Positions 1,919 through 64,000 are shown, counted from the stretch's first letter. The stretch: 64,000 nt of DNA from a virus (IMGVR_UViG_3300043172_001414); one strand, 5' to 3'. Program-made: numbers and translations. The notes: generated from the sequence alone by a model not told the origin.

Positions 1919-2180
1919 ATAAAAACACAAGCTCATTGGAGAATCTTATGGCATATATTATTAAAGAAGGTCACGAGTTCATGTTCCAGAATTCAAATCT
2001 TACTTTAGTTATGCGGACACCCGTTATGATTGAAGCGATCGACCAAAATGGAAAGAAAGTAAAAATTAAGAAAGAGTCTGCCCCACATTTGTGGCAAACT
2101 TTATTAACTGAAAGTATATATTAAATATTAACTTTTCTATTGACTAATTACTAAATTTTATATATAATATATAAAAGGAA

Positions 2181-2645
2181 GTGTTAATGAGAAAATTTGA
2201 ATTATTGAATAAATACATTGGAATTGAAGATTTCAAAATGCCATGCAGATCAACCAAAGCATCTGCCGGATATGACATCTTCAATAACACAGGTGAAGAA
2301 ATAGTATTGATCCCTGGACAGATGAGCGTAGCGATTACAACTAAACTACGAGCAATCTTTCCTGAAAGTGAAGTCCTTCAAATATATCCCCGAAGTTCTC
2401 ATGGATTTAAATACTCTCTTAAGCTTGCTAACTCGGTAGGAATTATTGATTCTGACTATGCTTTAGCTGACAATGAAGGTGAGATCTTTTTAAAGTTTCA
2501 TAATCAGTCACCCAGCAAAAGGCTAGTAATCAAACCTGGTGAGGCAATGGCACAAGCGATCTTCACTTCATACCTGACTACAGACGATGACGAACAAACT
2601 GTAGGTGGGAAAAGAACTGGTGGTATAGGTAGTACTACCAAATAG
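2181..2645 (+). CDS. dut: dUTPase (trimeric)
   Basis: ASAGYD, PRSS, VGIIDSDY, AQAIF, C-terminal RTGGIGST. Confidence 0.93.
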   Translation: MLMRKFELLNKYIGIEDFKMPCRSTKASAGYDIFNNTGEEIVLIPGQMSVAITTKLRAIFPESEVLQIYPRSSHGFKYSLKLANSVGIIDSDYALADNEGEIFLKFHNQSPSKRLVIKPGEAMAQAIFTSYLTTDDDEQTVGGKRTGGIGSTTK

Positions 2646-2651
2646 CACAAT

Positions 2652-2725
2652 CGGTGTGTAGGCTAGTCTGGTAAGTCGCCTGATTTGGGGTCAGGAAATC
2701 GGAGGTTCAAATCCTCCCATACCGA
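2652..2725 (+). tRNA. tRNA-Pro(TGG)
   Basis: Cloverleaf; anticodon arm CCTGA-TTTGGGG-TCAGG; T loop GGTTCAAATCC; no encoded CCA. Confidence 0.93.
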
Positions 2726-2733
2726 TTTTTTAT

Positions 2734-2807
2734 GGACGTGTAGCCCAACTGGCAGAGGCAGCGCACTTAAACTGCGTACAGCGTGAGTTCGAATCTCACT
2801 ACGTCTA
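2734..2807 (+). tRNA. tRNA-Leu(TAA) with short variable loop
   Basis: Anticodon arm GCGCA-CTTAAAC-TGCGT; T arm GTGAG-TTCGAAT-CTCAC; discriminator A. Confidence 0.88.
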
Positions 2808-2813
2808 CTTACT

Positions 2814-2886
2814 GGTCCTGTAGCCCAACGGCAGAGGCAGTTGCCTTAGAAGCAATACAGTGTGAGTTCGAATCTCACTAGGACTA
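2814..2886 (+). tRNA. tRNA-Leu(TAG) with short variable loop
   Basis: Anticodon arm GTTGC-CTTAGAA-GCAAT; D and T arms nearly identical to the neighbouring Leu tRNA. Confidence 0.88.
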
Positions 2887-2919
2887 TTATCTCGTCTGCC
2901 ATGTGTAGAAGGAGTTTCT

Positions 2920-2950
2920 GGGGTCGGACTATCAATTCGACCCCTGTTTT
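2920..2950 (+). terminator. Probable terminator after tRNA cluster
   Basis: GGGGTCG-11nt-CGACCCC then TGTTTTT. Confidence 0.6.
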
Positions 2951-3040
2951 TGCCAGGTTCTGGCAATTCTAGCGTAAAAAATATAACTAAAGTACATCTT
3001 TTTTATTGACTATTAATAATATTATTGTTATAATGGTTTT

Positions 3041-3534: not shown

Positions 3535-3535
3535 C

Positions 3536-7654: not shown

Positions 7655-8197
7655 ATGAAAAAGAAAATCCTAATATTAAACGAATCATATATGCCAATCA
7701 ACATCACTACTCACAAGAAAGTAATCAAAATGATTGCCCAGGAGAAACTTGATGTCATCGAAGTATACAATAATGAATACTATCATAACGGCTTCCCTAA
7801 AAATCCATCTGTAGTTCGCCTAAGACATACTATTAAAATGGGTAAGACTCGTAAGATCTATAAAGAGTTTAACCGTAGAAACGTACTAGAACGTGATAAC
7901 TACAGGTGTCAATACTGCAGTAAGTTGATTGACCATAAAACCATGCACTGGGATCATGTTATTCCTCGTGAGCAAGGTGGGCCAACTAACTACACCAACA
8001 TTGTAGCTTGCTGCCTCAAATGTAATCAGAAGAAAGAGAACAAATCTCTGGACAAATCTGGAATGAAACTAAAGTGTACCCCTGAAGCTCCGTACGAGTC
8101 TTCATCAGTTTATGCTATTATCATAAACAGAATAAACCATCTGATTGGCCCGTCAAAAGAAATAACTTGGGAAAATTATATTTATTGGAATAAATGA
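7655..8197 (+). CDS. HNH endonuclease (McrA-like)
   Basis: RDNYRCQYC, WDHVIPREQGG, NIVACCLKCNQKK. Confidence 0.92.
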   Translation: MKKKILILNESYMPINITTHKKVIKMIAQEKLDVIEVYNNEYYHNGFPKNPSVVRLRHTIKMGKTRKIYKEFNRRNVLERDNYRCQYCSKLIDHKTMHWDHVIPREQGGPTNYTNIVACCLKCNQKKENKSLDKSGMKLKCTPEAPYESSSVYAIIINRINHLIGPSKEITWENYIYWNK

Positions 8198-13533: not shown

Positions 13534-13959
13534 ATGCACCACACTAAGACAAAAGGTGATATTGGAGTAGGATTCGTTGTCGCAGACCTGTTAGAAAACG
13601 GAATTGTACCAGCTCTTCCAATGTCAGAACACTTACCGTTTGACATAGTCGCTATTAGTGCATGTTCTCATATATCTAGGGTTTCTGTTAAGTATAGAGA
13701 AAAGAATAAATATGGTTGTGTAGTAGTACCACTATCTAGTGTTTGGGCCGATAAAAAAGGGAACCACGTTAAAAAAGCAGACAAGAGTTTATTTGACGTA
13801 ACAGCTATTTATTGTCCTGATACTAAGAAAGTTTATTACGTTAGAAATGACGAGACAAATGAAGCAATATCGTTACGAATAGACAAACCTAAAAACAATC
13901 AAATGATAAATATAACGTCCGCATCCGATTATGAAGGAGCAGAAAGATTATTTGGGTGA
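13534..13959 (+). CDS. PD-(D/E)XK endonuclease of the homing/intron-associated type, free-standing
   Basis: TKGDIGV...DL...G...PFDIV...RVSVKY...FDVTAIYCP; SD AGGAG before ATG 13534; stop codon lies inside tRNA-Arg. Confidence 0.75.
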   Translation: MHHTKTKGDIGVGFVVADLLENGIVPALPMSEHLPFDIVAISACSHISRVSVKYREKNKYGCVVVPLSSVWADKKGNHVKKADKSLFDVTAIYCPDTKKVYYVRNDETNEAISLRIDKPKNNQMINITSASDYEGAERLFG

Positions 13960-14031: not shown

Positions 14032-14380
14032 GGGGATGCATTGGTATCGACATGGACACGGAAAATTAGATTGCATGTAGAGGATTTCGGTTGGCCTCTT
14101 AAAAAAGCCGGAAAAACAATAAATGCAAACAACACTTTTGCTGTAGCTGCTTAATCGCAACTAAACCACCTATTCTTGTCCTGGCTGGATAGACTGGTAT
14201 ATATCTCAGGATCGATTCTAAGCTATACTGAAGGGCTTTAGATTTAAACAACACTTCAGTTAAGCTTCAGCTGATCCGGCCTTTAGGGAGCCTCTGAAGA
14301 CGAAAAACAATACAAAGGAAAACATGTACCAATTTGATTGGAAATTTTTATGGACGAGAGTTCGAAACTCTCCATCTCCA
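14032..14380 (+). ncRNA. ssrA: tmRNA; tag (A)ANNTFAVAA
   Basis: 5' GGGGATG...TCGAC; 3' T arm GAGAG-TTCGAAA-CTCTC and CATCTCCA; tag frame 14125-14154 ending GCT GCT TAA. Confidence 0.92.
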
Positions 14381-14609
14381 CTAAGGAAAACAGTATGATT
14401 AACTATATTATAATCGGCATTACAGCAATCATGCTACTACCGATAATGAATAGAGAATCATTTGTTTACACAAAATTGCCGAAACATGTAGGAACCATGT
14501 ACGCAATGACAGTCGCCTCAATATTGGCGTATGCAACTTATAAGATAGGAAACTAAAGTATGGCTTATAACAAAGGAGTTCTCATGTAAATAATCACTAG
14601 GAGATTTAT

Positions 14610-16719: not shown

Positions 16720-18423
16720 ATGGCAAAGTTTAATAACACTCCAAGCAAGAACCGAAAGATGACTACATCAGAAGATGGCGTTAAAGCTTTCCAAAAATCA
16801 ATGTACCAAGATCTGTGTGATCGGGTATTGACATGTTTTTACGGCCAAGATAAATTCTATTCAAGTGGATATAAGGCCAACAAAGATCTTAGCAATCTGA
16901 TTCAGAAGGTCGGTAAAGAAGATCCAATGTTCCTAGCTAAATTGGCGATTCTAAGTCGTGAGAAATTTAACCTGAGATCTGTATCTCATGTGTTAACTGC
17001 AGAGCTATCAAGAATAGTTTCTACACTAAACACAAAAGAAGACATAGATACTTCAGTTGTTAAAACTGTAGCTGAAAGAGTTGTTGTTCGTGTTGATGAT
17101 ATCACTGAAATCCTCTCTTACTTAATCTACAACTACAGTAAAGAGAAGCAGTCTCAGCATGGTACAAGACACATGGATAAGAAATTCTCCAAACAGCTGA
17201 GAAAAGGTCTTCAGAATGCAATAGCTAAGTTTGATGCGTACCAACTCGGTAAGTATAAAGCTGCGAAGAAAGAAGTTAAACTCCGTGATGTTTTCCGCAT
17301 ACTTCGTCCTAAACCAATTGACGAAGACCAGGCGAAACTATGGGGTCAATTAATGGACGGTACTCTTGAACAATCTAACACCTGGGAGAATAAAATCTCT
17401 AGTGCTGGTCAGATTGACAAGAAAGGTAAGACTGAATCAGAAATCAAGAAAGAAGTTGATGATGCCAAGTCTGAAAACTGGGAAAAATTACTAATTTCCA
17501 AGAAGTTACCTTACATGGCGCTGTTACGTAACCTTAGAAACATTGTAGAAGCTAACGTATCTAAAGAAGCGGTTGACGCAGCTGTATCGTTCTTAACTAA
17601 CGAAAAGGCAGTTTTAAATAGTAAGCAGTTTCCATTCAGATTCTTCAGTGCATACAAAGCACTTAATGGTCAGGTTGGCTACGATCCTTATAATCGCTTA
17701 AGAGCTAAACTCACTATGGAAGTCGATCCTTTTGCATCAAAGTATGGTAGCGCCACTTCGAAACCATCTGTTGCTAATACTAAGGAAAGATTCTTAGCTG
17801 CTCTTAATAAAGCCCTCTGGCACTCTGGTAAAAATGTTCCTAAACTTGAAGGAAACACTGTGATTGCAGTTGACCTATCAGGATCAATGGATTCTAGATT
17901 ATCAGATAAATCAGAGGTTACTTACATGGAAGTCGGTGCTGTAATGGGGTCATTGGCTCAACAGTACTGTAATCAGTCTATTGTTTATGGTTTCGGGGCA
18001 ACTCAGCAGATCATAAAAGTTGATGAGCGTGGCGAAAATCCATTGGATCGTGTTCAGGAAATAATGAACACTAGCGTTGGACACTCCACAAACCTTCATG
18101 CAGTTATTAACGACATGACCAAACGTGGTATGCACGTAGATCAAATGTTCGTATTTACCGATTGTCAACTTAACGGAAGCTACTGGGGTGGATCTTCTTC
18201 TTCTCTGATGGGCGATCTTAAGACATACCAAACTAAAGTAAACAAGGATATTAAGGTTTACGAGTTTAACTTAGCAGCATCTGATGCTTCTACACAGTTA
18301 GATCCAAAGAACCCTAATTACTTCCACCTTAGCGGATGGAGTGATGGTTTACTTAAGAGCGTAGTTGAAATGGAAACCATGAAACACGGTATTTTGGACA
18401 TGGTGAACGCTGTAGAACTTTAG
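16720..18423 (+). CDS. rsr: Ro60/TROVE domain RNA-binding protein with vWA domain
   Basis: DPMFLAKLAILSREKFNLRSV, KFDAYQLGKY, VKLRDVFR..RPKP, TWE..ISSAG, LPYMALLRNLRN, QFPFRFFSAY, MIDAS DLSGSM, FTD, GWSD. Confidence 0.93.
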   Translation: MAKFNNTPSKNRKMTTSEDGVKAFQKSMYQDLCDRVLTCFYGQDKFYSSGYKANKDLSNLIQKVGKEDPMFLAKLAILSREKFNLRSVSHVLTAELSRIVSTLNTKEDIDTSVVKTVAERVVVRVDDITEILSYLIYNYSKEKQSQHGTRHMDKKFSKQLRKGLQNAIAKFDAYQLGKYKAAKKEVKLRDVFRILRPKPIDEDQAKLWGQLMDGTLEQSNTWENKISSAGQIDKKGKTESEIKKEVDDAKSENWEKLLISKKLPYMALLRNLRNIVEANVSKEAVDAAVSFLTNEKAVLNSKQFPFRFFSAYKALNGQVGYDPYNRLRAKLTMEVDPFASKYGSATSKPSVANTKERFLAALNKALWHSGKNVPKLEGNTVIAVDLSGSMDSRLSDKSEVTYMEVGAVMGSLAQQYCNQSIVYGFGATQQIIKVDERGENPLDRVQEIMNTSVGHSTNLHAVINDMTKRGMHVDQMFVFTDCQLNGSYWGGSSSSLMGDLKTYQTKVNKDIKVYEFNLAASDASTQLDPKNPNYFHLSGWSDGLLKSVVEMETMKHGILDMVNAVEL

Positions 18424-19597: not shown

Positions 19598-20248
19598 ATG
19601 GCAGTTATCAATCTTACAAAAGGTCAAAAGATTAACCTATCTAAAGACCATGCATCACTTAAAAAACTTGAAGTCGGAATGGGCTGGCAGGAAAGTAAAG
19701 GTTCTTCAATAGACCTTGATACTTCAGTTATAATGTTTGCCGGAAACACCGTTAAAGAAGTAGTTTCTTTTAGTAACCTTAATAGTAGAGACGGGTCTAT
19801 ACATCACCATGGTGATGATCTGACAGGTGGTGGCAGTGCAAACAAACCTAATGAGATCATCGACGTTACACTAGCTAAAGTTTCTTCGGATATCGACAAA
19901 CTTGGTTTCATTTTAAACATCTACGGATGTGCAAGTAGCAAGCAGACTTTCGGCAATCTTAAAAACTCTTGGGTTGCATTATACGATGCAGACACTAAAG
20001 TAGAACTTGCTCGTTTCAAACTCGATACTGATGATCAGCTTTCTGACAAAACTGCAATGATCATTGGTGAAGTTTACCGCCATAACGGTGAGTGGAAATT
20101 TAACTCTCTCGGTCAGGCAACATATGACAAATCAATAGCTGATGTTAAAAACAACTGGGGATCTCCTGTTTCTGAAAGACCACGTACAGCACAATCTACT
20201 GGCGGTGGTACAGGATTCCTCGGTAGACTTCGTGGTCTCATAAGCTAA
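19598..20248 (+). CDS. TerD/TerZ-family stress protein with C-terminal extension
   Basis: INLTKGQKINL, GMGW, DLDTS, HHGDDLTGG, GEVYRHNGEWKF. Confidence 0.9.
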   Translation: MAVINLTKGQKINLSKDHASLKKLEVGMGWQESKGSSIDLDTSVIMFAGNTVKEVVSFSNLNSRDGSIHHHGDDLTGGGSANKPNEIIDVTLAKVSSDIDKLGFILNIYGCASSKQTFGNLKNSWVALYDADTKVELARFKLDTDDQLSDKTAMIIGEVYRHNGEWKFNSLGQATYDKSIADVKNNWGSPVSERPRTAQSTGGGTGFLGRLRGLIS

Positions 20249-20316: not shown

Positions 20317-20847
20317 ATGTTACAAAAATTAAAAACAGATATTCTTGCAGATGGCAAAATTGACGCTGATGAAGTAGTACAACTCAGAACTGCTATTTAT
20401 GAAGATGGAAAAATTGACAAAGAAGAAGCTGACTTGTTGTTCGCATTGAATGATGCAGTTTCTGTAAGCGGTTCATTTGACCCAACTTTTACAACTCTTT
20501 TCGTAGAAGCTATTTCTGACTACGTTCTCGCTGACGAAGCAACACCTGGTGTTGTTGATGCAATCGAAGCTAAGTACCTTGTAGACCAGATCTCTGGTGA
20601 TGGTGCTATGGATGAAAACGAACAACTTCTTCTTAAGAACATCAAAGCTAAAGCAACTTCAATTGATTCAGCTCTTGACGAACTTTATAGCCTTCTTCCT
20701 GTTGAAGAAGTAGCAGCAGCAACAGAAGCAGCTCCTGTAGTAGCAGAAACTGAAGTGACTCCTGTAGCTGAAACTGAAGTAGCACCTGTAGCTGAAACTG
20801 AAGTGACTCCTGTAGCAGAAACACCAGCTCCTGAAGCAGAAGCTTAA
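20317..20847 (+). CDS. TerB-family protein with repetitive tail
   Basis: DILADGKIDADEV...DGKIDKEEADLLFALND; located between two TerD-family genes. Confidence 0.75.
   Translation: MLQKLKTDILADGKIDADEVVQLRTAIYEDGKIDKEEADLLFALNDAVSVSGSFDPTFTTLFVEAISDYVLADEATPGVVDAIEAKYLVDQISGDGAMDENEQLLLKNIKAKATSIDSALDELYSLLPVEEVAAATEAAPVVAETEVTPVAETEVAPVAETEVTPVAETPAPEAEA
20734..20829 (+). repeat. 24-bp tandem repeat encoding PVAETEV(T/A)
   Basis: CCTGTAGCTGAAACTGAAGT units at 20761 and 20785, with degenerate copies at 20734 and 20809. Confidence 0.9.
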
Positions 20848-20931: not shown

Positions 20932-21513
20932 ATGGCTGTTATCAAATTGTCCAAAGGACAAAAAATTAATCTTACTAAAGATGCTCCTGAAATGACAGAA
21001 TTTCAAGTAGCTCTTGGATGGAACCCTTCAGAGCAACCTGGTGTAGACTTCGATCTCGACGTATCTGCATACATGATTGGGTCTGACGGCAAAGTAGTAC
21101 CTAACGAAAGCTTCGTTTACTACGGAAACCTCAAATCATTATGTGAGTCTGTTGTTCATTCAGGCGACAACCTTACTGGTGATGGTGATGGTGATGATGA
21201 AGTTATCACTGTAGACCTTACTAAAGTTCCTGCAAATATCGAAAAAATTGCTTTCATTACTACAATTCATGAAGCAGCTTCTCGTAGTCAGAACTTCGGT
21301 CAAGTTAGTGATGCGTATGTTCGTCTCGTTAACAAATCAAACGGTGAAGAAAAATTCAAATTTGATCTTTCAGAAGATCACTCAGTTGGAATTTCACTTC
21401 TTGTTTGTGAACTCTATCGTCATAATGGTGATTGGAAATTCAATCCTCAAGGACAGTCAAGCGATAAAGATCTCGGTGCAATCTGCAGCGATTTCGGTCT
21501 TGATGCAGCTTAA
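20932..21513 (+). CDS. terD: TerD family protein
   Basis: LSKGQKINLTK, LGW, FDLDVSA, VFYYGNL-like FVYYGNL, HSGDNLTGDGDGDDE, QNFGQV, ELYRHNGDWKF. Confidence 0.93.
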   Translation: MAVIKLSKGQKINLTKDAPEMTEFQVALGWNPSEQPGVDFDLDVSAYMIGSDGKVVPNESFVYYGNLKSLCESVVHSGDNLTGDGDGDDEVITVDLTKVPANIEKIAFITTIHEAASRSQNFGQVSDAYVRLVNKSNGEEKFKFDLSEDHSVGISLLVCELYRHNGDWKFNPQGQSSDKDLGAICSDFGLDAA

Positions 21514-25379: not shown

Positions 25380-25925
25380 ATGAAAATAATACTAATACTG
25401 ATAACCTGCTACTTTAGTTTTGCTTCAGCTCAACTGAAGTATAATCGCAAAGACTTTGGTGGGTGGATCGATGCAGATAAAGATAAAATTAATACTCGTC
25501 ACGAAGTATTAATAGAAGAAAATTTAACTCCCTTAATGTTGAGAATGACTGAGAATGGTAAACGTGTGTTGTACGGTAAGTGGGTGTGCTTCTTTTCCGG
25601 TGATACAATTCTTAAAGCATCCAAACTCGATGTTGATCATGTAGTCCCACTGAAAGAAGCGTTCGTATCAGGAGCTGCAGACTGGCCTAAGAAGAAAAAG
25701 AAACAGTATGCCAACTATTTAAAAGACCCTTCACATTTAATCGCTGTTAAAGCTTCTGAGAACCGAAGGAAGGGCGCTAGAGATCCATGCAAGTATATGC
25801 CACCTATTAACAAATGTGCATACCTTGATATATGGATTAAGATTAAAACCGATTGGGATCTAATCTTTGACGATAAAGAATTCAAATGTATCATAGACCT
25901 TAGAAAAAAACACTGCGTTGAGTAA
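25380..25925 (+). CDS. Secreted HNH endonuclease (DUF1524/GmrSD-C-like)
   Basis: Signal peptide; LDVDHVVPLKEA...HLIAVKASENRRKG. Confidence 0.85.
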   Translation: MKIILILITCYFSFASAQLKYNRKDFGGWIDADKDKINTRHEVLIEENLTPLMLRMTENGKRVLYGKWVCFFSGDTILKASKLDVDHVVPLKEAFVSGAADWPKKKKKQYANYLKDPSHLIAVKASENRRKGARDPCKYMPPINKCAYLDIWIKIKTDWDLIFDDKEFKCIIDLRKKHCVE

Positions 25926-26121: not shown

Positions 26122-26427
26122 ATGAAGATTGAAAAGACCCCCAACGGATTAGCAGTTATACCATTTAGAGATCAAAACTTTGTCGCATGCACTCTGCAAG
26201 AATCACATTCGAGTGGAAGATCTATAACTTTCGGGGCCGAGAGTATAGGTCTTAAAAAATTTGCACCAGGAGAAGGATGGAAAGATGTTAACCTTGACGT
26301 GTCAGCATCTGATCATTATGATGCAAATACAAAAATGCACTTAACACGAGAGCAAGTAAAATCTTTATTACCACACTTAGAACAGTTCGTACGAACAGGG
26401 GAGTTAGCCTTAAATGGATCTGATTGA
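26122..26427 (+). CDS. Hypothetical phage protein
   Basis: ORF; ends in MHLTREQVKSLLPHLEQF. Confidence 0.55.
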   Translation: MKIEKTPNGLAVIPFRDQNFVACTLQESHSSGRSITFGAESIGLKKFAPGEGWKDVNLDVSASDHYDANTKMHLTREQVKSLLPHLEQFVRTGELALNGSD

Positions 26428-30332: not shown

Positions 30333-30520
30333 GTTTATATGATTACAAAACTGCAGTTGGCCTGGAAGAAACAAGCCCATCATTCTATGCACTATTAATG
30401 GCTACAATAAGAAAAGCTGGTGACGTTGAACTAGCTAAAATTGAATCAGTATTTCCAGGCGTTGTTGCTGAAGTTAGAGCCAGGTATAATGCCCCTGGCG
30501 GCATGTTGGAAGGGGATTAA

Positions 30521-30949
30521 CTAAAGTATATCTTGTTTTACTAAAAGATCTTTAATTGTTAACCAATTAACATAATTCCTGGCATGTGCGCCTATTATTA
30601 ATGGACAACCTATTGCATCATCCCCTATGTATGCTTGCGCATATGCTTTGGGGCTAGATGTCCAACTACTCTGCTCTGGATTCTCCTGGACACCAAACAA
30701 TTCTATATCTCGATCCTCGAACCATTCCACAGCGTCTGCAAGTTCTTTACCACTTCTCATAGTAAATAATATTAACCTGTGGCCCTTAGCTCTTAACATC
30801 TTCAATACAGACTCTGCATAAGGTACATCACGGCCTACTCGTGGATACTCGTGCATTACACAAGTCCCATCAAAATCAACAGAGATATCTATTGCAACAA
30901 TATCATCACATTTACATTCATATATACCACCCATGTTATTTTTCCTCAA
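30521..30949 (-). CDS. HAD-superfamily hydrolase (BT0820-like)
   Basis: VDFDGTCV.H.YP, LILFTMR, K.YA..YIGDDA. Confidence 0.8.
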   Translation of the reverse strand: MRKNNMGGIYECKCDDIVAIDISVDFDGTCVMHEYPRVGRDVPYAESVLKMLRAKGHRLILFTMRSGKELADAVEWFEDRDIELFGVQENPEQSSWTSSPKAYAQAYIGDDAIGCPLIIGAHARNYVNWLTIKDLLVKQDIL

Positions 30950-32881: not shown

Positions 32882-35700
<2,819 letters not shown>

Positions 35701-44577: not shown

Positions 44578-45380
44578 GTGGTTATTTTATATATTAAATA
44601 ATATAACAATGTTAATAAGAAAAGATGTAAAAATATGACACCGGAATTAGAAAAAAAATTAGACGCTATAATAACTAAAACCCCAGGTCAAACTACAAGT
44701 TTCATAGATATGTGGAAATGCCACAAAGAAATCATAGAATCTATTCCAAATCATGAAGAATTTCTAACGAAAGAGATAGAGTGTGTCAGAGAAAGGTATA
44801 AGCAACGACTTGTAGAGAGATCTGAAGATATTTTCGATTCTTTCCACGAGGGATATTCGCTAAGGAATGAGAAATCGTTCAGCCAAGCATGGTGGAAAAG
44901 CACAGCAAAGGAAAAGTTTGATGAAGTAAATGAAATACTGCATAGAAATATAAATGAGCAACATTAATCTATTATAGTCTCTATTTTGTGTTTCTCACAA
45001 TAATTTAATATTTTACCAACAATATACGCTAAAATATAAGGCAACACTTCGTCACTCCAATCATCAAGACTAATAAATCCCTTACGTACCCCTAATTCAT
45101 ACCTCACAGCGTGTGTAACCTCATGAACTATGTTAGTTATTGGCAATGGATAGCTTATATCTAAGTGGATCTCAGGGGGCCTTAAAAGCTCTTCATCGGC
45201 TACTGTAAAACCACCAGCATCTTTATCCTCAAACCCATCTTCGTAAACAATTATAAAATGTGATCTTATAGCTGCTATTTTAATCGTCTGGGTTTTACAA
45301 ACCTTCTTTTGTTCGGACATAAAGCCCTCCAAGATAGGTTATATACTACTATTTATAAGGAATTAACTAAAGTACTTCAG

Positions 45381-46331
45381 TTAACCGCAACCACTACTAT
45401 TGCAACTTGGAGCTTCTATCCGTCCACATTCACCCCGTCCACGCTCACAATCAGCATATCCAGTATTTTGTAATTCGAAGTAACCTGAATGATTATCGAC
45501 AATAACCTCTTTAGGAGCGACAACATAAGGCTTCATGCCTTTCCAATCACGGTAAAGATTCCCATCTGGCATAAAGATAAGTTCGTATACATCATTGATA
45601 TGCTCTGATGGCTCATCTAGAGATCCTGACCATATTACAGTAACCCCTCGAATCAGCTGCTCTTTAGTTCGACATACCGGACAACTACTTTCAGATATAA
45701 CTTTATAGTGCTCATATCCGTTTTCAACTGAAGTAGGTTCTAATGTCCCACTTTCTCTTCTAAAGTTTACAGATCTAACACCAAGCTCACGAGCGTATTT
45801 AATATATCTTTCAATAAATGCTCCCATTGTGTGTTCTTTTATTACACAATTTAAAGATACATCAATTCCATGTTGACCACATTGATCTATAATCCTATGT
45901 AGATCATGAGTATCTACAGTATACGTACCTTTGAATACTTGTTTATTAAAAGCATCATCATAATGATGTCGGCTGATATTAATATGATTTACAACTGAAG
46001 ATAACAAAGGTAGCTGATTAATTAAGTGCGTCCCATTAGTAGTAAGAACTACTTTTCGGAACTGTTCACCATAAAGAGCTAACATAGATATTACATGACT
46101 GAAGTAAGGAGATATTAACGGTTCTCCACCAGTCAAACTAATCTGACGAAAATTCTCAGGCATATTTTCCAAGGTATACTTCAGTTGTTTAACATATTCA
46201 ACTAAAGGAATCTCTTCATTCGAGATGTCAGTTGAATCATTAAAACAGAAACTGCAGTGAGCATTACACCCACCTGGTAACAGTATACTGAAGTTCGGAT
46301 TGTCATTATAAGTTTTCAAAACAGCTCCCAT
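45381..46331 (-). CDS. Radical SAM protein with Cys-rich C-terminal tail
   Basis: CNAHCSFC, SLTGGEP, LTTNG, NISRHHY; ends CERGRGECGRIEAPSCNSSGCG. Confidence 0.88.
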   Translation of the reverse strand: MGAVLKTYNDNPNFSILLPGGCNAHCSFCFNDSTDISNEEIPLVEYVKQLKYTLENMPENFRQISLTGGEPLISPYFSHVISMLALYGEQFRKVVLTTNGTHLINQLPLLSSVVNHINISRHHYDDAFNKQVFKGTYTVDTHDLHRIIDQCGQHGIDVSLNCVIKEHTMGAFIERYIKYARELGVRSVNFRRESGTLEPTSVENGYEHYKVISESSCPVCRTKEQLIRGVTVIWSGSLDEPSEHINDVYELIFMPDGNLYRDWKGMKPYVVAPKEVIVDNHSGYFELQNTGYADCERGRGECGRIEAPSCNSSGCG

Positions 46332-47483: not shown

Positions 47484-49117
47484 ATTGATGTTGAAGTTGT
47501 TCCAGGGTAATCTTATCGTCGTCCCTGTCGGTTAATATACATTTTCCATCACGCATATCAATACGGACAGTTATATATTTACATCTAGAATTCTTAGTCC
47601 AGCACCAATCGAATGCTTTAGCTTTCTCGATTACTTTAGTTACACTTTCGAATGGTATCCAACTCATTTGTTACTCATATATTTTAGCCATTTGAGATTG
47701 AATCCATTCAGGCCACAATTCGTTAAACGCTTGTTCACCATTGACACGACCGTCATAGAGGATAAAGTGAACTATATCTACAGGTAGTGCTAGACAAAGT
47801 GCAATTACACATAATACAATACCAGGTATTATCAAAATAGCATAAATTGTTCTACGTATCATTCCAATCATTATCTATCCTCGTATGGATAATCAGGACA
47901 ATCAACTTCAGAAATGTGAGTAGGTTCTATAATATCGTGTATTTTAATACCCATATTATGGTCTTCACTATCAGCATGAAACTTATTATCAAGACCAAAT
48001 GTAGCCGTAATTATAATGTCGTATTTATCATTTCTTAACGCAGCCCAATAAGATTTTTGAACTTCCAAGTCATCTTTCATTTCGTTACACACTTCTATCC
48101 AAGGATCTTTAGAATCAGCCTCTTCTTCGACCTCGTCCTCTTGACCCATATCTTCTAGAACATTAATTGCAGTATCCTTAAGTGGCTCGTACTTAACAAA
48201 AGATTTTGCCACTAAGTCAGCCATAGTAGAAGAATGACATGACATAGACAACTTTATTTCACCATCGAATTCTTTATCCATAGCCATCAATATGAAACAC
48301 TCATATTTGTCAGATATTATATCATATAATATCTGACCATCTGCCATAGGTCTTTTAGTTTCAGACAGCTCTATAGCTTCGTCTACTTGATACTGATCAA
48401 TACCATGAACTTGACTCCATTGCATCATATTGTCATCGTTAAATACGCCTATTGTATCTTTAATCAACCGCTGAAACATCTTAAGAGAATCTTCTAGTTT
48501 GACACGGATAGGATCACGAGCAACTTGGTCTTCGGTATAGTCTTGAATTAGTTTCTTTGCACCTGTTCTGTCAAGTTGACCCTGTTGAATCATATCAACA
48601 ATTTCATCCGGTGTGAATATAGTATCTTTTTCTTTACTCATGTTTACTCCTTATGCACGTCTACAACTAAAGTAATTAAAAACTAAGAACCCTGTCAATA
48701 ACTAATTAACAGGGTTCTCTAATTTAAGCCAATGAGTTATTAAATTACCCTCTGGCATCTCTCGTCCTTTACGACCCCACTTGCACATTTTTGGATTGTA
48801 CCATGCAAGAACATTAATCTTTACATTATTACGACAATACACAACCAGGTACACACGAAAATCCCTTGGCAATGCATCATTAACATCTATCCATTGGTCA
48901 ACCATTCTCTCGTTTCTCCTGGTTTTTCTGTTCATTAATATGACAATCAATAAGCCATTCCATATCAGCTAAAGACATTACTATCTCAACGTCATCTGCG
49001 ATATCGATAATAGAAATGGGATAGGCATTATCATTATACCGCTTCTTATAATGATACGATACCTTATTTTTTTTCTCAGGATTGAGCCTGGTATAAGTCA
49101 CTTCAGTTGGTGTCACA

Positions 49118-49413: not shown

Positions 49414-49446
49414 AACTAAAGTACATATAATTTAGTAACTTGTCAA
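49414..49446 (-). promoter_or_regulatory. Phage promoter class TTGACA-17-TACTTT-AGTT
   Basis: Same module at 50467, 55020, 56262, 57658, 58917, 60783, 61320 and 63610 (all -); variants at 48665, 54239, 59305 (-) and 59347 (+). Confidence 0.8.
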
Positions 49447-49873: not shown

Positions 49874-50264
49874 ACTTTAATTTTCTTCCTTTGGTAACAT
49901 ACCTATGTTCATAACTAAAGTAGCTGAAGCCTTTTTAAGACTCTCGATGTTTCCCATACTGCCTTTAACAGCGGTAAAGTATTGATGCATCATACTCTTT
50001 ATATTCTTTCCACGCACACCCTCATTAGGGTTGTTTGTTAGCTTATCTGGGATTGATGCACAGTAATCATATAAAACACCCAAGAACTCTTTATCATCTT
50101 TAGGTATAGACTTGCATAACACTTGTAATCCGTTTATTAGATCATTACACAATAAAATATTTTTATTAAAGAAGCTCTCGTCTATAACATTAGGGTCTAC
50201 TATTTGCTGCAACCCTGTCACTAATACGGTTTTATATTCTATCATATTTCCTTACTTTAGTTGA

Positions 50265-50419: not shown

Positions 50420-50626
50420 CCAGGTATAAATGAACAAGTTGAAATCTCAAATAAACAACCAGTCATAACTAAAGTACATATAATATATTTTACTGTCAAT
50501 ACAATTTTATAGACAGTAATTAATTTAACGACTATATTACAGTATACGTGTTTTATCACTTTCACGTAGAATAAATAACCGGAAAGTAGTAGAGGGAACT
50601 CTGCTACTTTTTTTAATGGAGAAATT

Positions 50627-52490: not shown

Positions 52491-53195
52491 GCTTCATATA
52501 CTCACCCAGCGTTTCGTTCAAGGTGAATATGTACATAATGTATAATGATTACTTTAGTTTGTCAATAGATTTATATCATCGGTAACTTTTTAACATAACC
52601 TATAGTTTCTTTGAGAAGAATGGCTTGATATATAGGATTATGTCCTGGCGATGGAAACGCTACACTATATATCGTAAACCCCTCAGACAAATACTTATTT
52701 ACTGATTCATCAAATATTGAAGGAATGCCACTGCTAATGGTTTTTATTTCCTGCATACATTAAACCCCATCACTTTAGAAAAATCTGGTATGATATCTTC
52801 TGTATACAATAACCGCCACTTCTTGTCATTTAATTCTTCCAGGTATATCTTACCGCCCTGATTACTATTCATGGCTATCACTTTTCCAACTTCTAATTCT
52901 TTAACCGTACCATCGTCAAATTCTATGTTTATACTTTTTATCATCACCAATGCCCCTTAACAGTAACCTTGTTTAGGTGCCTAATAAAATAATTTACAAC
53001 TAAAGTATGATCCCATCTTCGTCTCCACCAAGGCTTATTCTTTAATTCAATTAGATCTATAATCAAATTACCTAAAGGAAATTCCAGCTCTTGCATGGGT
53101 ATTGTAATATGATCACCATTAGCGGTAGTTACTTCACGATCAACAATTTTTCCAGTTTTATATTTCTTTAATGTATCGTACATATGAACTCCATA

Positions 53196-54206: not shown

Positions 54207-54288
54207 ATATACTCCGTTGTTATAAATTAATAATGTCTAACTAAAGTATAATTAACAGTTAATATCTTGTCAATACTTTTTATGTACT

Positions 54289-54768: not shown

Positions 54769-55064
54769 AATTACTTTTCTGCTAAGGTGTGGTTTGGTAG
54801 TACTGTTCGTACCATTTCTATAAATTCTTCTTCTGATAAAATAATAGTGGCATCTGTAAAGCCTGGATCAACTGTTTGGTCTGATTCGCTTATAGTGATT
54901 CCAACTGCAGCTCTCCTTGGTTGGTAACTTCCAACACACAGTATGTCACCATCACCATTCTTTTTCGAATATATTAAATTGTGTTTTCCCATATTATTTT
55001 ATATGTACTCCTTTAATGTAACTAAAGTAAATGTATTTGATTATATTGTCAATGTAAACTTTAG

Positions 55065-56238: not shown

Positions 56239-56314
56239 ATTAACCTACCTTGTTATAATATAACTAAAGTACATCAATTATATTACTCTGTCAATAATTA
56301 TTTTATTATAAACT

Positions 56315-56704: not shown

Positions 56705-58813
56705 TAATTCTTTTCAGCCACCACAGCTCGCAATTTTATCTCTGGTGAGATAACGATATCTACGGGGCCTTTAAAGTCTGACTTAGACATTTTTTTCATT
56801 TTTAATTTCCCATGCTTGATTAGGATCTATGAAAGTAATAGTCCTGCAATGAATCAATACTAGTGGATCTTTATCTGGATTTGTATAATCACATTCAGGC
56901 AAAATTACTTTAGTTACATTTAATTTGTCAATACCATCACACTCAACTTCAAATAAATATGGGACATGATTACCATAAGGGACTTCTTTACCTTCATGGT
57001 TAAACCATTTGAATGATACCTCACTCAAATGCTTAACCACAACAAATTTATTGATAACGGCTCCCATATTATTTATGTTAGGGGTGTAGTATGATTTCAT
57101 AACTTTATCCTGGGTTGTTATAAGGAGCCTCCTTTTACCAATCACTTCTTTAATACATTCTCTAGGTTCATTCCAGTCCCGAACATAATTAATATTAAGA
57201 ACAATGGAAAACCATAAAAGATCCAAGCTAAAGCATATGCAGTTAGTATTAAACCAGAAGTAATCACTTGTATAGCCAATGCTCTTTTAGCACGTCTAGT
57301 ACGGCTATTATCGTTAATTCTATCTACCATACTACATGACCTCCATGAACACCGAACTCCCCGACTACTCTAAACCCGTGGTCACTGAGAAATTTATCCA
57401 ACTGATTTTTCCTAAAAACTAAATTAGTACCGTCCAGGATATCTACATCCTCTAGGAATATAAAGTGATCCATTTCTTCAGGACTTTCACTGAAAAAATT
57501 CCCAGACTTGCGATATTCGAAACCAGTATCTTCAAACAATTCCCCAAACTCATCACTATCTTCGTCTTCCATTAAATCTTGATACTCTATCTCGTATCCT
57601 ACACCATAAACTGCTTCGTAATCAATTCCCATATATACTCCTTGTTAACCGTTTATTAACTAAAGTACATACAATATATTAATTTGTCAATATTTTAATG
57701 ACAATAAATACTTTAGTTGTTATTATAGCATTAGGAGAATATATGTCATGTGTACCAAGAAAAGGCCAAGTGTGGCTAGTAGATCGTATTATAGGTAGAA
57801 ACCGTTTTAGCCAAAAGGTCAAAGTTATTCGTGACCCAGATCTAAAATTTGTACATGATAATGGAACCGTTGATATGTTCGAAAATGTTATATGTGAAAT
57901 TGCTGACGGTGAGAGTAAAGGCAAAACATATTTTGTCAGGATTACTAGCTTTATTGATCCTGCTTAATCTTAATTTTATTCCGGTACTCATCCATGCCAA
58001 TTTTTCGTAATTCGCTATAATCATTCGATGCTATAGCTAAGAGAATCATAATAAAATATTGCATCCAACATAAGAAACCTACAAAATCTTTATTGAAATC
58101 AAAGTAGATCATGAATGGCACTGTAAGTATAAGATGAGCTGGAAATACTATACACAATACACGAAACATATCACTGTACCAAAACCATATGAACCATCGT
58201 TCAAAGAAGCCTACTTTCATCAAGAACCCTATTTAAAAGTTAATATTTTTAGTTTCTTAAAATTGGCGAGAGATTTCTCTACAGCTTTTTTATGAAGATC
58301 AAAAGATTGGTCTTCATAATATTCGTACCGATGTAGCTCGGCTTCTAAGAACCGAATCATATGACTTATTTCTTCTTTGCTCATTTATGTTTCCTTGATA
58401 ATCTGAAACTTATAATTAGACCTATTATAATCATAGGAATATGTATATGCCAAGTTGCTGTTATCTGAGTACAAATAACACTTATCGAAAGAGATATCGC
58501 TATTAATACTTTAGTTAATAGCGATACTTTCGTATTAAATACTAGTATGATGAATAATAAACCATAAATCACCACACATTCCCAATAAAAATCTTCCATT
58601 AAAAATCAATCGGCTCAAGGTAATAGAAATAAATATCACCACAGTCTACACCTTCGACCTCACAACTTAACCACTGATATGTAATATCATCTTTAGTAGC
58701 TGTTTCAGCTTCTTCATCGACTGTATAACCTTGTTCTTCGAAATAATTCCCAGGCAACTGTGAACATCTATCTACTGCATGTATAACCATTCTATCCTAC
58801 TTTAGTTTAATGA

Positions 58814-58913: not shown

Positions 58914-59397
58914 AGTAACTAAAGTACATCAATTATAGTAATCTGTCAACTAATTTTCCATGGTTCTTCTGGGTCTACGTAAGTTATACACATATCTACA
59001 AATTGTATATGATTAAATAACTCCCATTCTAATATAGCTATGTAGTCGTCTATATTTTCAATAACTTCAAAATTAAATACATGACCTGAACATGGAATAT
59101 GTATTATAAATTTCAATTTCATCAAATCTGATCGCATATAATTAATAGTCTTCATGAATTCATCATAACAGCTAAATGTTCGACAGTACATACTAGGAGA
59201 TAATAACTCTTCTCGTATTTTATCCTTCAACTCCATATATTCTTTATGTCTATACCATGCCATTATAGGCTTAACTGATCTATCTAATTTTTTAATATCC
59301 ATACAACTAAAGTACATATATTTTATTAATCTGTCTATAAAAACTATTGACAACAGTACATATTTAAAATATACTTTAGTTAAATAAAGGAGTAACG

Positions 59398-60207: not shown

Positions 60208-60559
60208 TGTTTGAATGGTATCGTAAGTACAAGAAAGATAAAGTACAGAAGAAGATGATTAAGAGGCTTGACACTTTAGTTGGGCCTCGTCTTCAGGCAC
60301 ACATGGAACTCTATAGTAGAATGTACAGAGGGATGATTAAGGCACGTCTACCTGGTATGATATATCAAGACGATGACCTAAAAATTAGACATATGTGGAC
60401 TCAAAAGAGAGGTCATCTAGACATTTACGATATCTATTATAGAGACTACCCTAAGTTTTCTTATGACCTGCACGAATATTTTGATGATGCATTAATAGAT
60501 ATGTGTAAGATAATAGTTCAATACAAAGAAATGCCCACTGAGCAGTGGGAAGTAAAATA

Positions 60560-60623
60560 AAACGGTGGGTAGACTTGAACTACACAGGTGCACCTATCTC
60601 GCTGCCAATTTGAGATCACCGCC
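60560..60623 (-). ncRNA. Mini tRNA-shaped RNA E6 (64 nt)
   Basis: Acceptor GGCGGTG/CACCGTT; D loop AAATTGGCA; GTAG-TTCAAGT-CTAC; anticodon arm reduced to AGGTGCACCT. Confidence 0.55.
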
Positions 60624-60630
60624 AGTATAA

Positions 60631-60778
60631 GTATCTTACGGTGAGCGATCAGCGTATTTCAGCTGACTCACAAGCAAGGTTATCCCACAGACTGTTTTAA
60701 GGGTCATGTACACTTCCTTCTCATCATATCTGTGGTTCCTACACGTTGCGTTGGCACGGCCAACCCTCCGTAAGATAC
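60631..60778 (-). ncRNA. Unassigned multi-stem RNA
   Basis: 11-bp terminal stem GTATCTTACGG/CCGTAAGATAC; GTTGGC/GCCAAC; CCACAGA/TCTGTGG; TCAGC/GCTGA; starts just below the promoter at 60783-60815. Confidence 0.6.
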
Positions 60779-61998
60779 CTCAAACTAAAGTATAACATTT
60801 ATACGTATTTGTCAATAGTTAGTTTAAAATTATTAACTCTCCTCGAAGTAATCCGGTTTAGCAAACCTGTCTGAGAATGTTATCTCATCCTTTTCATCGA
60901 AGTCTACGTCATACGCATCATCCCAATACTTAAGAAGATCCTCGTCCGCTGGTAGATAAGCTACAATAACATCAAAAGCACCCTCGTCCTCACCGCCAGA
61001 TCCACTGCACCACCAAGGGTACTTAGGATTGAAAACTAGCGGTCTATGATCATCTACAGCGTGTGTATAGAATCTATATCTTTTCCATTTCATTTGATAC
61101 CTTCGTCAAGCGGTTCAATATCTACTGTTATATCATGCATCTCACAATATAACTCATAACACTTGGTATGAACCTGTTCAGCTTCCATTATATTACCTCG
61201 CTCAGTTCCTGGCTTAGGAACCAAAACTACAGGCATATCCTTGTTAGAGTTACAAACATGACATCTAAAATTTGTCATGTTTGGATGATTAAATTGTCTC
61301 ATTTTATTCCTCTTTTAGCAACTAAAGTAGTATAGTGATGGTTATATGTCAATAAATTATTGACAGTGCATACTTTAGTTACTACAATTTAAGTATGAAA
61401 AAAATAATTAAAAAGAATCCGGTTGATACATTACCGCTCGATGCAGAAGAAGTGATTAATCATATTAAAAATGAGCATGCGGAATACGCTGTGTTTAATG
61501 ACGAACGAGATCCACGACGATGCGATCCTGGAATTCTGGTAATAGATAAGTCCCACGACACAATTATTATGGTTGGGGTAAAAGGGTTAAGTACTTACTC
61601 TTCTGAAGATCATACCGATAAGATAGAGTCATATATTAATGACGGATTTTTATACCAGGTAAAGGTTATAGATGTCAGATAGATTAGATTATAAGAAGAT
61701 GTGGGAAGAATTAAAAGAAGAAGTCATATTTAGGAATGATAATGGCTGGGGTGGACAAGAACTTGAAGCTATGATTGAACATGCAGAGAAATATACTTTA
61801 GTTGAAGGCAAATTAGTTATATTAACCAATAGCCAGAGAGACAGTTACGGCCATGAATCATACGGATGTCCTCATTGTAATTATGAACACTGGGAGCGTA
61901 GATGTGTAGATGATCAGTTACAGAAGGATTGCTGTGAGTGTGCAGGATTAATGCTTTTTAAACCACACCCGTTAGCTAAAACAAAATAAGGATAGGAT

Positions 61999-62241
61999 AT
62001 GTACAGAGGCAAACGAATGGACTCTAAGGAGATTGTATACGGAAATCTAGTTAAAATGGAAACTGTAGACAAGCCAGACTATCTGATCATTCCGGCTGAT
62101 AGCAATGTTACTTCAGTTGATAATCACCATCATTGTGACGATGGAAAGAATCCTATCACATTTGACAAGTGGTATACTATTAATCCATTGACTCTTCAGA
62201 AGGAGCAAGGTGGACTTTGGTGGGAATACCTACCGAGTTGA
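61999..62241 (+). CDS. YopX N-terminal-like protein
   Basis: YRGKRMD..E.VYGNLV...INP.TL. Confidence 0.55.
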   Translation: MYRGKRMDSKEIVYGNLVKMETVDKPDYLIIPADSNVTSVDNHHHCDDGKNPITFDKWYTINPLTLQKEQGGLWWEYLPS

Positions 62242-64000
62242 TCAAATATAATGTCTTGACAAACTAAAGTAGTTAGTATATGTTATCTGTATAGTTTATT
62301 TGGATACTGTAATGAAAGATAACACAGATATAATAGAGACTTTTTATAGAATCAGCTGTTGGTTAACATTAATAACAGCTGGACTATTATTGTTCGGAGT
62401 CTTTAATTAGACTTTTTATCAATATTAAACTTGGCATTCTTTCCAGTTGCAGGTTCCAACCCTAATTTAAAGCAGTACAATAATATCATCATCTGCAGTG
62501 CTTGTAGATATGTTATCTGAGATAGCTTGAATACTTCGGGTATCACTTCATTCCAAATAAGCATTACTGGTACACCAAGAACCAACATGTAACACATTTC
62601 TATACCTATATTAATTGTACCTTTCATTTAACTTTCCATCCTTCTAAATTTTTTATATCCCAATCGTCAACAAAGCAATACGTAACATATTGAAACGGTT
62701 CGCTTGCATACACGATATAGTCATCTATATTATCAATTGCTGGATACGGCCATATTCTAAGATACTTTCTGGATTCCGTAAAATCAACCAGGCTATCTAG
62801 ATAATCAACTGTCATTAAGTCGTTCTCGCTCTTCCGCTGCAGTCTCACCATAGTATATTGGACACCTGGCTAGTCTGATACACTTAGTATCTGGTTGTAT
62901 AATCTTGTAATCTGAAGGGCAATAATGCTTTCCATCATTTTCAACATTCGATGTACATACAGGATCTTTTGTGTACAGATCAAAGTCTATAACGACACCC
63001 TGCAGCGTCTCTCCTTTATGTACCCACTCAATGATATTGCCAACCTTTGCAGTGACTTTAACTGGTGTATTATTAGCTATAATAGAATCTACTACTCTGT
63101 CGGCTATCTGATTACGGATAACGTCTCTCAGTATAAGCTTTCCGATACCATATGGAATTGCCACCAGAACTACCTTCTTTAATTCGCTTTTATTCATAGC
63201 TTCTCCTATTACTTTAGTTTTTTATCTACAACTAAAGTAATTTCAATTTCCAGTTTAACCATGCACAATCCACATATATTTGCATCAGGATATGTATCAT
63301 AAATCCAATCGACAAATCCATCAGTGATGTTATACGGGACAAGACAACCTGCTACATTATATGATTGTTTGCATACGCCACAATTTCTCACTTTAAGTTC
63401 CTCCATCCATTTGCCACGCCTATGGCCGCAAACCGCATGAATACAAAACCCTGACTTAAAGGAATTAACAACGCTATAAGGAACTGTACTTTAGTTTTAT
63501 ACTCACGTTCAGATAAAAATATCATTACAAATACAAGATTGATAAATTCAAGTATTGATACCATCACTATAAAACTTACTTCAGAATCTGTCATATATAC
63601 TCCTTTATTAACTAAAGTACATATAATATATTAATCTGTCAATAATTATCTTGGGAAAGGGTTTGATTTCTTGATAGATTTTACCTCACACTGAATAGAG
63701 AGAATCTTGTTGCGAATTTCTGTATGATCTATTGGAATTTGTTTTACCTCTGTGTCTACAACAAATTCCATAAGGTCGTATAGTTTGCTCTCTAGTCTGT
63801 TGTACATACGTCCATTACAGTTTGAGTTAACTTTTCTAAAATATTTAAAATTTCACCAATAGTGTTATGATTTGATTTCAGTGATTCAGTCATAACCTCA
63901 TCGACTTCAACTGATGATGCTACAACTTCAACTGTCATATCCATTCGTTCTTCTAATAGGCTAACATCAACAATTAGATTTCCTACGATGAACACTAATA

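Follow-up and report, generated by a model that had tools for sequence, protein, structure and literature searches.

A strict oriented DNA word repeated in genes and promoter cores of two related phage genomes

We analysed a 64,000-nucleotide (nt) stretch of the genome of an uncultured marine virus, IMGVR_UViG_3300043172_001414, referred to here as the window, in which a short oriented DNA word, TACTTTAGTT in its commonest spelling, is repeated inside genes and in promoters. Genes in the window were called with our own heuristic based on open reading frames (ORFs), which gave 131 genes and 86% coding DNA. The window carries tRNA genes and a transfer-messenger RNA (tmRNA) gene. Its proteins include NAMPT, a Ro60/TROVE protein, an NAD-dependent ligase, RtcB, Tpt1, NUDIX and dUTPase, and further an HNH nuclease, a PD-(D/E)XK nuclease, two TerD proteins, RlaP, a PNKP phosphatase domain and an ion channel.

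A DNA-level search found no sequenced phage close to the window. When IMG/VR was searched with the pattern TTGACA-N17-TACTTTAGTT, one real relative was obtained, IMGVR_UViG_3300043172_001415 (G001 below), which comprises 104 kb at 30% G+C, an estimated ~42% of a genome, and was syntenic with the window at a nucleotide identity of about 70%, with values of about 64-84%. G001 contains a T4 replication set (gp43, gp41, gp61, gp32, UvsX, UvsW, gp46/47, RNase H and gp44), and its gp43 was only ~30% identical to that of cultured T4-like phages. Judged by the gene content of G001, on which this was checked, the phage is T4-like. A 248,963-bp contig of the Joint Genome Institute (JGI), with a gp43 77% identical to that of G001, is probably the window's own genome. 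The two word-bearing genomes are mutually related, and tests on them are therefore not fully independent.

The word and its grammar

The window contained 61 exact copies of TACTTTAGTT (25 on the plus and 36 on the minus strand), spread over 2001..63619 on both strands, while dinucleotide-preserving shuffles gave a mean of 0.37 and at most 3. The first-pass annotation had counted 55 copies and expected fewer than about one; all positions that it listed were confirmed, and six copies had been missed. The word it described is real, but it is only one spelling, the commonest, of the strict oriented word t-N-CTT-Y-AG-N'-T; positions 2 and 9 of this word covary, and its core is 9 bp long. The next most enriched 10-mers in the window were TACTTCAGTT (20 copies), TGCTTTAGCT (16) and TGCTTCAGCT (9), and the mixed forms TACTTTAGCT and TGCTTTAGTT were found 3 and 0 times.

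The real core is the 9-mer at positions 2-10. Core sites (ACTTYAGTT or GCTTYAGCT) numbered 137 in the window, 62 on the plus and 75 on the minus strand from ~1857 to 63619, which is one per 467 bp; in G001 there were 199. Expected counts were taken from an order-3 Markov model trained with the sites masked, and the exact cores were over-represented 26-76 times:

Core ACTTTAGTT: 76 observed and 1.1 expected in the window; 105 observed in G001
Core ACTTCAGTT: 31 observed and 1.0 expected in the window; 60 observed in G001
Core GCTTTAGCT: 19 observed and 0.43 expected in the window; 29 observed in G001
Core GCTTCAGCT: 11 observed and 0.43 expected in the window; 5 observed in G001

The T at position 10 was invariant and the centre of the word was strictly T-Y. 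A T at position 1 was found in 77% of the window sites and 62% of the G001 sites, and C was avoided at position 11, after the word. When positions 2 and 9 were tabulated against each other (4x4), the complementary cells stood out in the order A:T >> G:C > C:G and the mixed cells were near background. The A:T pair was counted 76 times in the window and 105 times in G001, the G:C pair 19 and 29 times, and the C:G pair 5 and 4 times against 0.4 expected, so that the C:G spelling CCTTTAGGT, whose 3' end is GGT, was ~10 times enriched. Outside positions 2:9 no complementarity was detected in the sites of the window or of G001. The pairing being confined to these two positions, no longer hairpin is formed, and a long hairpin or cruciform was ruled out. 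The symmetric form AACTTTAGTT was 10 times rarer than the asymmetric word, whose arms are palindromic while its centre (T-Y) and flanks (T...T) are not.

One-letter neighbours of the core, pooled, were present at expectation, 29 against 26 in the window and 43 against 45 in G001. We concluded that recognition is all-or-none and that no class of precursor words is depleted; such specificity is typical of a dedicated reader. A separate perfect palindrome, TACTGCAGTA, has the same ACT...AGT arms around a GC centre and contains a PstI site. It was present in 6-7 dispersed copies in the window, ~12-15 times enriched, and was absent from G001.

Placement in genes, conservation and clade restriction

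Thirty of the 61 TACTTTAGTT copies lay fully in genes (14 sense, 16 antisense), 3 lay across gene ends and 28 were intergenic, in line with the first-pass annotation, which had placed about half of the copies in genes in both orientations. Two of the six reading frames of TACTTTAGTT hold a stop and the other four were all used, giving T-L-V 11 times, T-K-V 12 times, L-K-Y 4 times and Y-F-S 3 times; the main frames were N-ACT-TTA-GTT for T-L-V and A-ACT-AAA-GTA for T-K-V. When all core sites of the window were considered, ~70% were inside genes on either strand, and in-gene sites were divided between sense and antisense as 43/52 in the window and 69/85 in G001. The equal use of sense and antisense excluded a signal acting at the RNA level. 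The A-TT spelling accounted for 31 of 35 copies outside or at the edge of genes against 42% in genes; that intergenic copies are nearly all of the best spelling is as expected if coding limits the spelling inside genes.

Copies in genes were ~10 times commoner than shuffling of synonymous codons allows:

TACTTTAGTT in genes: 30 observed; synonymous-codon shuffle 3.1 +/- 1.6, maximum 8
TACTTCAGTT in genes: 18 observed; synonymous-codon shuffle mean 2.6
TGCTTTAGCT in genes: 14 observed; synonymous-codon shuffle mean 1.3
TGCTTCAGCT in genes: 9 observed; synonymous-codon shuffle mean 1.2

Shuffling the order of codons gave an expectation of 0.3-0.4 for each spelling, and three kinds of codon shuffle together ruled out a codon or peptide artefact. 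The tripeptides T[LKSE]V and A[LKSE]A occurred 2-4 times above the prediction from composition and were mostly spelled with the word; T-x-A and A-x-V were not enriched in the proteome. The copies have thus raised the frequency of the tripeptides that they encode. Selection at the DNA level clearly maintains the word, and the view of the first-pass annotation that it is not only a promoter element held up against both controls named there, the codon-preserving shuffle and the Markov model.

Several individual sites illustrate how copies are accommodated in genes or next to each other:

25410..25441: three family members at 11-bp steps, TACTTTAGTT, TGCTTCAGCT and AACTGAAGTA
30519..30528, minus strand: copy at the stops of a convergent gene pair; the plus strand reads AACTAAAGTA
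34100..34109, minus strand: copy in the gene of the NAD-dependent DNA ligase, where it gives Y-T-L-V; G001 has the identical letters in the alignment
45365..45382: two overlapping inverted copies, AACTAAAGTACTTCAGTT
58495..58526, plus strand: intergenic 13-bp hairpin with the word at its tip
63210..63239: inverted pair of words, 10 bp apart, in a small gene

The triplet at 25410..25441 encodes the N-terminal hydrophobic stretch of a GmrSD_C-like protein, and the cluster was not kept in G001. At 30519 the word had been said to contain both stop codons of the convergent pair. This was essentially right: the TAG stop of the minus-strand gene (CTA at 30521-23) lies within the word, though the TAA stop of the plus-strand gene (30518-20) only overlaps its first two letters. 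The ligase gene holds 5 core sites in all. Beside the overlapping copies at 45365 can be set a perfect 18-bp palindrome of G001, AACTAAAGTACTTTAGTT, which adjoins a TTGACA. A tandem coding repeat (E-T-E-V...A-P-V-A) with three successive ACTTCAGTT cores was seen in the plus-strand gene 20317-20847, where the word may have been amplified by repeat expansion.

Position was kept between the two genomes. Twelve of 30 aligned sites were identical from the window to G001 and 13 of 28 from G001 to the window (40-46%), and 16-17 stayed in the family; of the control 10-mers in the same alignment blocks 6.8% were identical. This conservation is far above background. Among the sites that changed, some had switched spelling (TTT to TTC) and one was inverted in place.

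Comparable words were not found in four gp43 relatives, L348 (53%), L068 (50%), L349 (49%) and L147 (47%, a TARA ocean scaffold), nor in 36 further T4-like loci (gp43 loci of at least 12 kb). As far as these sequences tell, the word is not a general T4-like trait and is restricted to one shallow clade. Two loci were considered and rejected. The 7 copies of TGCTTTAGCT in L028 proved to be a protein repeat, and L068 (IMGVR_UViG_3300035698_002326) repeats TTTTACTTGAAAT at 8 sites, an ordinary and different repeat that resembles the extended -35 region (TTGAAA) of its early promoters. A search of bacterial genomes for paired copies of the word gave only tandem repeats among the matches listed. Five marine bacterial genomes contained 12-31 copies each, the same as a control word and hence background; on this coverage the word is not evidently derived from a host. 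The literature yielded no relevant paper for the word itself, and we know of no genome-wide recognition word in the biology of T4-type phages.

Promoter cores, orientation and spacing

Twelve copies followed a perfect TTGACA, 9 of them at 17 nt, 1 at 18 nt and 2 at 19 nt, the last two with TATACT as the -10, and one further copy was located 17 nt after TAGACA. All of these copies were in the small-gene region at 48.6-63.7 kb. Of the TTGACA hexamers in the window, 18/59 had the word within the next 32 nt, compared to 1-3 of 36-50 for control hexamers, and between 48 and 64 kb the word was carried by 14 of 16 ATTGACA sites. In G001, 13 of 80 TTGACA hexamers had the word in the next 32 nt against ~6.5% of controls. 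Word-bearing promoters of the window, with the register of the word in each, were the following:

48665..48698, minus strand: early-type promoter, TTGACA, 18-nt spacer, word as -10; 23 nt before a gene start
49414..49446, minus strand: TTGACA-N17-TACTTTAGTT; G001 carries the word at the corresponding aligned position
50467..50499, minus strand: TTGACA-N17-TACTTTAGTT before a tRNA-like RNA unit, which ends at an inverted word copy, 50253-50262
52537..52565, minus strand: TTGACA-N17-TACATT with an inverted word, at 52566, abutting the -35 (TTGACAAACTAAAGTA)
54239..54273, minus strand: shifted register, TTGACA-N17-TATACT; compared with the main class, the start of the word is 2 nt further on
55020..55052, minus strand: TTGACA-N17-TACTTTAGTT
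56262..56294, minus strand: TTGACA-N17-TACTTTAGTT
57658..57718: two divergent promoters; in the minus-strand one (57658) the word serves as the -10, and a second copy, 57709 on the plus strand, is in the spacer of the plus-strand promoter ATGACA-N17-TATTAT
58917..58949, minus strand: TTGACA-N17-TACTTTAGTT before a tRNA-like unit, which ends at an inverted word copy, 58798-58807
59347..59381, plus strand: shifted register, TTGACA-N17-TATACT; the ATG at 59398 follows after 16 nt
60783..60815, minus strand: TTGACA-N17-TACTTTAGTT; no protein gene was called downstream, and a small RNA may be its product
61320..61388: two divergent promoters; in the minus-strand one (61320) the word serves as the -10, and a second copy, 61371 on the plus strand, is in the spacer of TTGACA-N17-TACAAT
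63610..63642, minus strand: TTGACA-N17-TACTTTAGTT

Within promoters the word thus coincided with the -10, fell in the spacer or adjoined the -35, and it occurred in both orientations; the inverted word abutting the -35 was seen in the same arrangement three times in G001. A varied register together with a constant overlap with the core promoter is operator-like, and unlike copied cassettes. Among the 28 intergenic copies 20 pointed at the next gene, mostly 14-49 nt before its start, and intergenic copies outside the TTGACA class showed no orientation bias toward the next gene. The two minus-strand tRNA-like units, each with a TTGACA-N17-word promoter and a terminal inverted word, resemble a duplicated cassette bounded by the word.

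Two known phage promoter types were compared and rejected. The word differs from the T4 late promoter TATAAATA, which is itself present with 11 copies in the window and 29 in G001, one of them before a late-region ORF upstream of the G001 homologue of a T4 neck protein. The MotA box of T4 middle promoters is (a/t)(a/t)(a/t)TGCTT(t/c)A, and the G:C spelling TGCTT(T/C)AGCT contains this box letter for letter, the T/C choice included. The main spelling, however, has A in place of G, the word in promoters is placed at -10 and not at -30, and over the 137 + 199 sites neither a -10 at 11-13 bp nor any downstream information content was detected. MotA and AsiA (PF09158, PF09010) were not found in G001 (~42% of a genome).

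Orientation was compared with genes and with neighbouring sites over both genomes. It was independent of gene direction, and no strand skew was present along the window or G001, nor at the switch of gene orientation. Enrichment at the 5' ends of genes was seen in the window and not repeated in G001. The density in G001 was fairly even, 16-37 sites per 13 kb, with the replication genes included. The spacing of all sites was near random, with a coefficient of variation of ~1.0 in the window and ~0.9 in G001, and regular spacing of all sites was therefore not supported. Neighbouring sites were in opposite orientation more often than by chance, 84/136 in the window (P=0.004) and 122/198 in G001 (P=0.0006). 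This alternation was strongest at distances of 100-300 bp (60/84), and convergent and divergent pairs were equally frequent. Spacing on the same strand was more regular than under shuffled labels (P ~0.005 in each genome). Outside its overlap with the window, G001 showed the same trend to alternation, weaker, with 45/76 (P=0.075).

Possible readers and functions of the word

We tentatively favour, at something short of even probability, the reading that a highly specific phage DNA-binding factor recognises the word, which doubles as an operator of early promoters. All-or-none specificity, selection, clade restriction and above all the fact that the word lies in promoter cores, in either orientation and in several registers, argue for a dedicated reader of double-stranded DNA. 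We infer that this reader is a protein, presumably phage-encoded, and a mechanism can be proposed. One such factor would bind the word in double-stranded DNA with high sequence specificity. Bound within the core of a sigma-70-type early promoter it would occlude RNA polymerase, and occlusion would shut off the early promoters or set their timing. In genes, where copies number in the hundreds, the same factor would be loaded all over the phage chromosome to serve as a mark, a bridge or a block; a multimer with two-fold symmetry could bridge neighbours of opposite orientation.

Among known systems the closest is that of the stoperators of Cluster A mycobacteriophages (L5, Bxb1, TipsytheTRex; PMC9283540). 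Like the word they are short, asymmetric and highly specific, present in the early promoter and dispersed over the genome, and lineage-specific. They are 13-mers, a few dozen per genome, in short intergenic gaps, and their orientation follows transcription, its reversal abolishing function (PMC9283540). Stoperators belong to temperate phages with a known repressor, a monomeric two-domain protein, whereas the word described here is 9-10 bp long, occurs ~2 times per kb with ~70% of sites in genes and in an orientation independent of the gene, and belongs to a T4-like phage.

Several observations weigh against an operator-like site. The promoter enrichment in G001 was modest. A regulator would gain little from ~100 in-gene sites per 64 kb, which cost amino-acid changes, and such a density is better explained by a function per distance or per fragment; a cost of this size suggests that every site brings its own return. 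Alternating orientation and same-strand regularity are what a strand-specific process would directly predict, and they follow from bridging only in an indirect way. A single protein that reads two half-sites independently would not be expected to impose strict complementarity on positions 2 and 9; this complementarity is in fact explained by none of the models considered. The word also ends in GTT or GCT, which are both start sites of the T4 primase. Finally, no candidate for the reader was found in the window, where ~50 of the 131 proteins were scanned against Pfam, or in the 104 kb of G001.

Among the ~50 window proteins covered by the Pfam scan there was no helix-turn-helix or similar regulator, and matches of a nuclease type were generic only:

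7655-8197: HNH nuclease gene, conserved in G001
13534-13959: PD-(D/E)XK nuclease
25380-25925: GmrSD_C-like protein

A 532-residue protein of G001 (L061:6327-7925, minus strand), encoded between uvsY and gp46 and absent at that place in L349 and L147, was also considered. It belongs to an unnamed family and has 99 distant relatives, no Pfam match and the polymerase motifs A, B and C (...HDS...), and its structure model (predicted local distance difference test, pLDDT, 80) matched the DNA polymerases I of Bst and Taq (family A); this divergent family-A polymerase-like gene sits in a phage that already possesses gp43. As the protein collection yielded no close orthologue from the window's phage, the 532-residue protein was rejected as a shared reader. 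The suggestion of the first-pass annotation, a binding or recognition site for a phage protein, is in keeping with the clade specificity, which fits a phage-encoded reader; no reader was recognised among the proteins scanned, and any of the functions listed there (organisation, regulation, packaging, recombination) may apply.

An unlikely explanation is that the word is a preferred site of lagging-strand priming by a gp61-type primase, or a site of a strand-specific nickase, each orientation serving one fork direction. The primers of T4 gp61 are pentamers begun at 5'-GTT or 5'-GCT (bioRxiv 10.1101/2023.05.03.539249). In every A:T and G:C spelling the word closes with G-Y-T, its final T being invariant; its positions 5-9 would template the whole primer, and homologues of gp61 and gp41, the primosome, as well as of gp43 and gp32 are present in G001. 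The gp61 homologue of G001 lies at L062:2206-3213 and the gp41 homologue at L067:13650-15011. Okazaki fragments of T4 are of the order of 1 kb, and there is ~1 site per kb per strand; the alternation above chance, the same-strand regularity and the independence of gene direction are all in the sense expected. The C:G spelling, however, ends GGT, and the regularity is modest, with 59% alternation and the weaker value in the independent part of G001. A trinucleotide suffices for the T4 primase, and an extended hyperabundant word is lacking in 40 other T4-like loci, whose primase is of the same type, so ordinary gp61 specificity does not produce it.

For nicking, the HNH nuclease gene conserved in both phages is a point in favour. 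T5, phiKMV-like and tf/LUZ24-like phages have consensus words associated with nicks at localised single-strand interruptions, which likewise are short, exact and oriented, recur along the genome and serve as targets of a phage enzyme. Their number is far lower than that of the word described here, they usually occupy a single strand, and the nicks were physically shown there. Nicks on both strands every kb would leave the DNA fragile, and neither priming nor nicking gives a reason for placement in promoter cores or for the 2:9 pairing.

That the word is a self mark for a machine moving along or taking in DNA, comparable to Chi or uptake sequences, we regard as improbable. A nuclease of the phage or the host would stop degrading at the word, or a packaging or recombination machine would prefer it, and own DNA would be told apart from that of the host. 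Each added site would bring a benefit, which would explain why genes are loaded with the word. The evenness on each strand suits an oriented signal, and since the five marine bacterial genomes were at background the word would discriminate.

The uptake signal sequences (USS) of Pasteurellaceae and DNA uptake sequences (DUS) of Neisseriaceae (PMC2817400, PMC3630211) are strict 9-12-mers at ~1 per kb in both orientations, placed in genes in preferred frames that use preferred codons, with conserved sites, occasional inverted pairs and lineage dialects, and the tripeptides they encode are about doubled (PMC2817400). HIP1 (GCGATCGC) of cyanobacteria (PMC5861425, PMC4390886) is 15-300-fold hyperabundant in and between genes, of palindrome type and without known function, and is under selection, as its conservation between genomes shows. 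The density of ~1-2 per kb, both orientations, preferred frames, tripeptides doubled or more, inverted pairs and lineage spelling of the word match these systems. Uptake sequences, however, belong to bacterial chromosomes and are read by competence machinery, whereas the word belongs to a phage, obeys an internal pairing rule, is linked to promoter cores and left no sign in the bacterial genomes tested, among the matches listed and in the five marine genomes. HIP1 is a perfect palindrome with two orphan methyltransferases and a 10-90-kb periodicity, while the word is oriented (T-Y centre, T...T flanks) and its spacing near random. Chi words, 5-8 nt long, are recognised on a single strand, which would make a 2:9 pairing rule senseless, and the orientation skew with replication direction tested for a Chi-type signal was absent from the window and G001. 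Placement in promoter cores is not predicted by a self mark and no reader was found for it; to our knowledge no Chi- or uptake-like system has been described in T4-type phages.

A by-product of a mutational or repair drive, for example a methyltransferase-linked repair of the very-short-patch type converting near-words, an idea formerly put forward for HIP1, is very improbable. Such a drive, if persistent, could yield both hyperabundance and conservation, and HIP1 has been linked to orphan methyltransferases (PMC4390886). The one-letter neighbours were not depleted, though, and the C-to-T neighbour ATTTTAGTT was found 0 times against 1.8 expected in the window and 4 times against 4.3 in G001. 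A drive at a single position cannot reach an enrichment of 26-76-fold, and the orientation pattern and the promoter-core placement are left unaccounted for.

Sigma-70 needs T at -7 and A at -11. The remotest explanation, that the word is only the -10 of a copied early-promoter cassette and that in-gene copies are internal or antisense promoters, draws on the TTGACA-linked copies, on the intergenic copies pointing at the next gene and on the habit of T4-type phages to spread promoter cassettes, but for copies in genes it is already refuted in large part: genes contain ~70% of core sites, on either strand; TACTTT matches TATAAT in only 3 of 6 letters; a TTGACA-like element 16-18 nt upstream of the -10, the sigma-70 spacing, is present for a minority of copies only; TACTTC, TGCTTT and TGCTTC break the A(-11)/T(-7) rule and are yet 7-11 times enriched in genes, TACTTC and TGCTTT equally so and with no -35 or other flanking signal; and late promoters are the usual TATAAATA.

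Beside the genes discussed above, the window contains groups of genes that were recorded as observations in their own right:

14032-14381, plus strand: one-piece tmRNA gene, tag peptide ANNTFAVAA, adjoining tRNA-Arg; 78% identity to G001
16720-18423, 26414-27352, 29641-30105, 40277-41380 and 43121-43675: dense set of RNA-repair genes (Ro60/TROVE, RlaP, PNKP phosphatase domain, RtcB, Tpt1/KptA), with NUDIX, NAMPT and the NAD-dependent ligase close by
19598-20248, 20932-21513, 22225-23280 and 35702-36382: genes of a Na/Ca exchanger-type membrane protein, a voltage-gated-type ion channel protein and two TerD-domain proteins

Selection for a 9-10-bp word has here been strong enough to reshape proteins, in a phage type that is among the best studied. 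The nearest sampled relatives (~50% polymerase identity) are without the word, from which it follows that a new reader arose or was acquired recently. It is rather unlikely, but would be of consequence, that the word represents what can be seen of a system of self-recognition based on sequence. A dedicated phage factor would then read the oriented 9-bp word with its internal pairing rule at ~500 sites per genome and distinguish phage from host DNA, in the service of protection, replication start or packaging. T4 itself uses base modification, and such a system would be the functional counterpart of that modification and a phage analogue of Chi or uptake sequences. The pairing rule is not predicted by simple protein-DNA models, and the strict grammar offers a sharp experimental handle. 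The reader, once found, would represent either a new means of early-gene shut-off and chromosome organisation or a new way of marking phage DNA.

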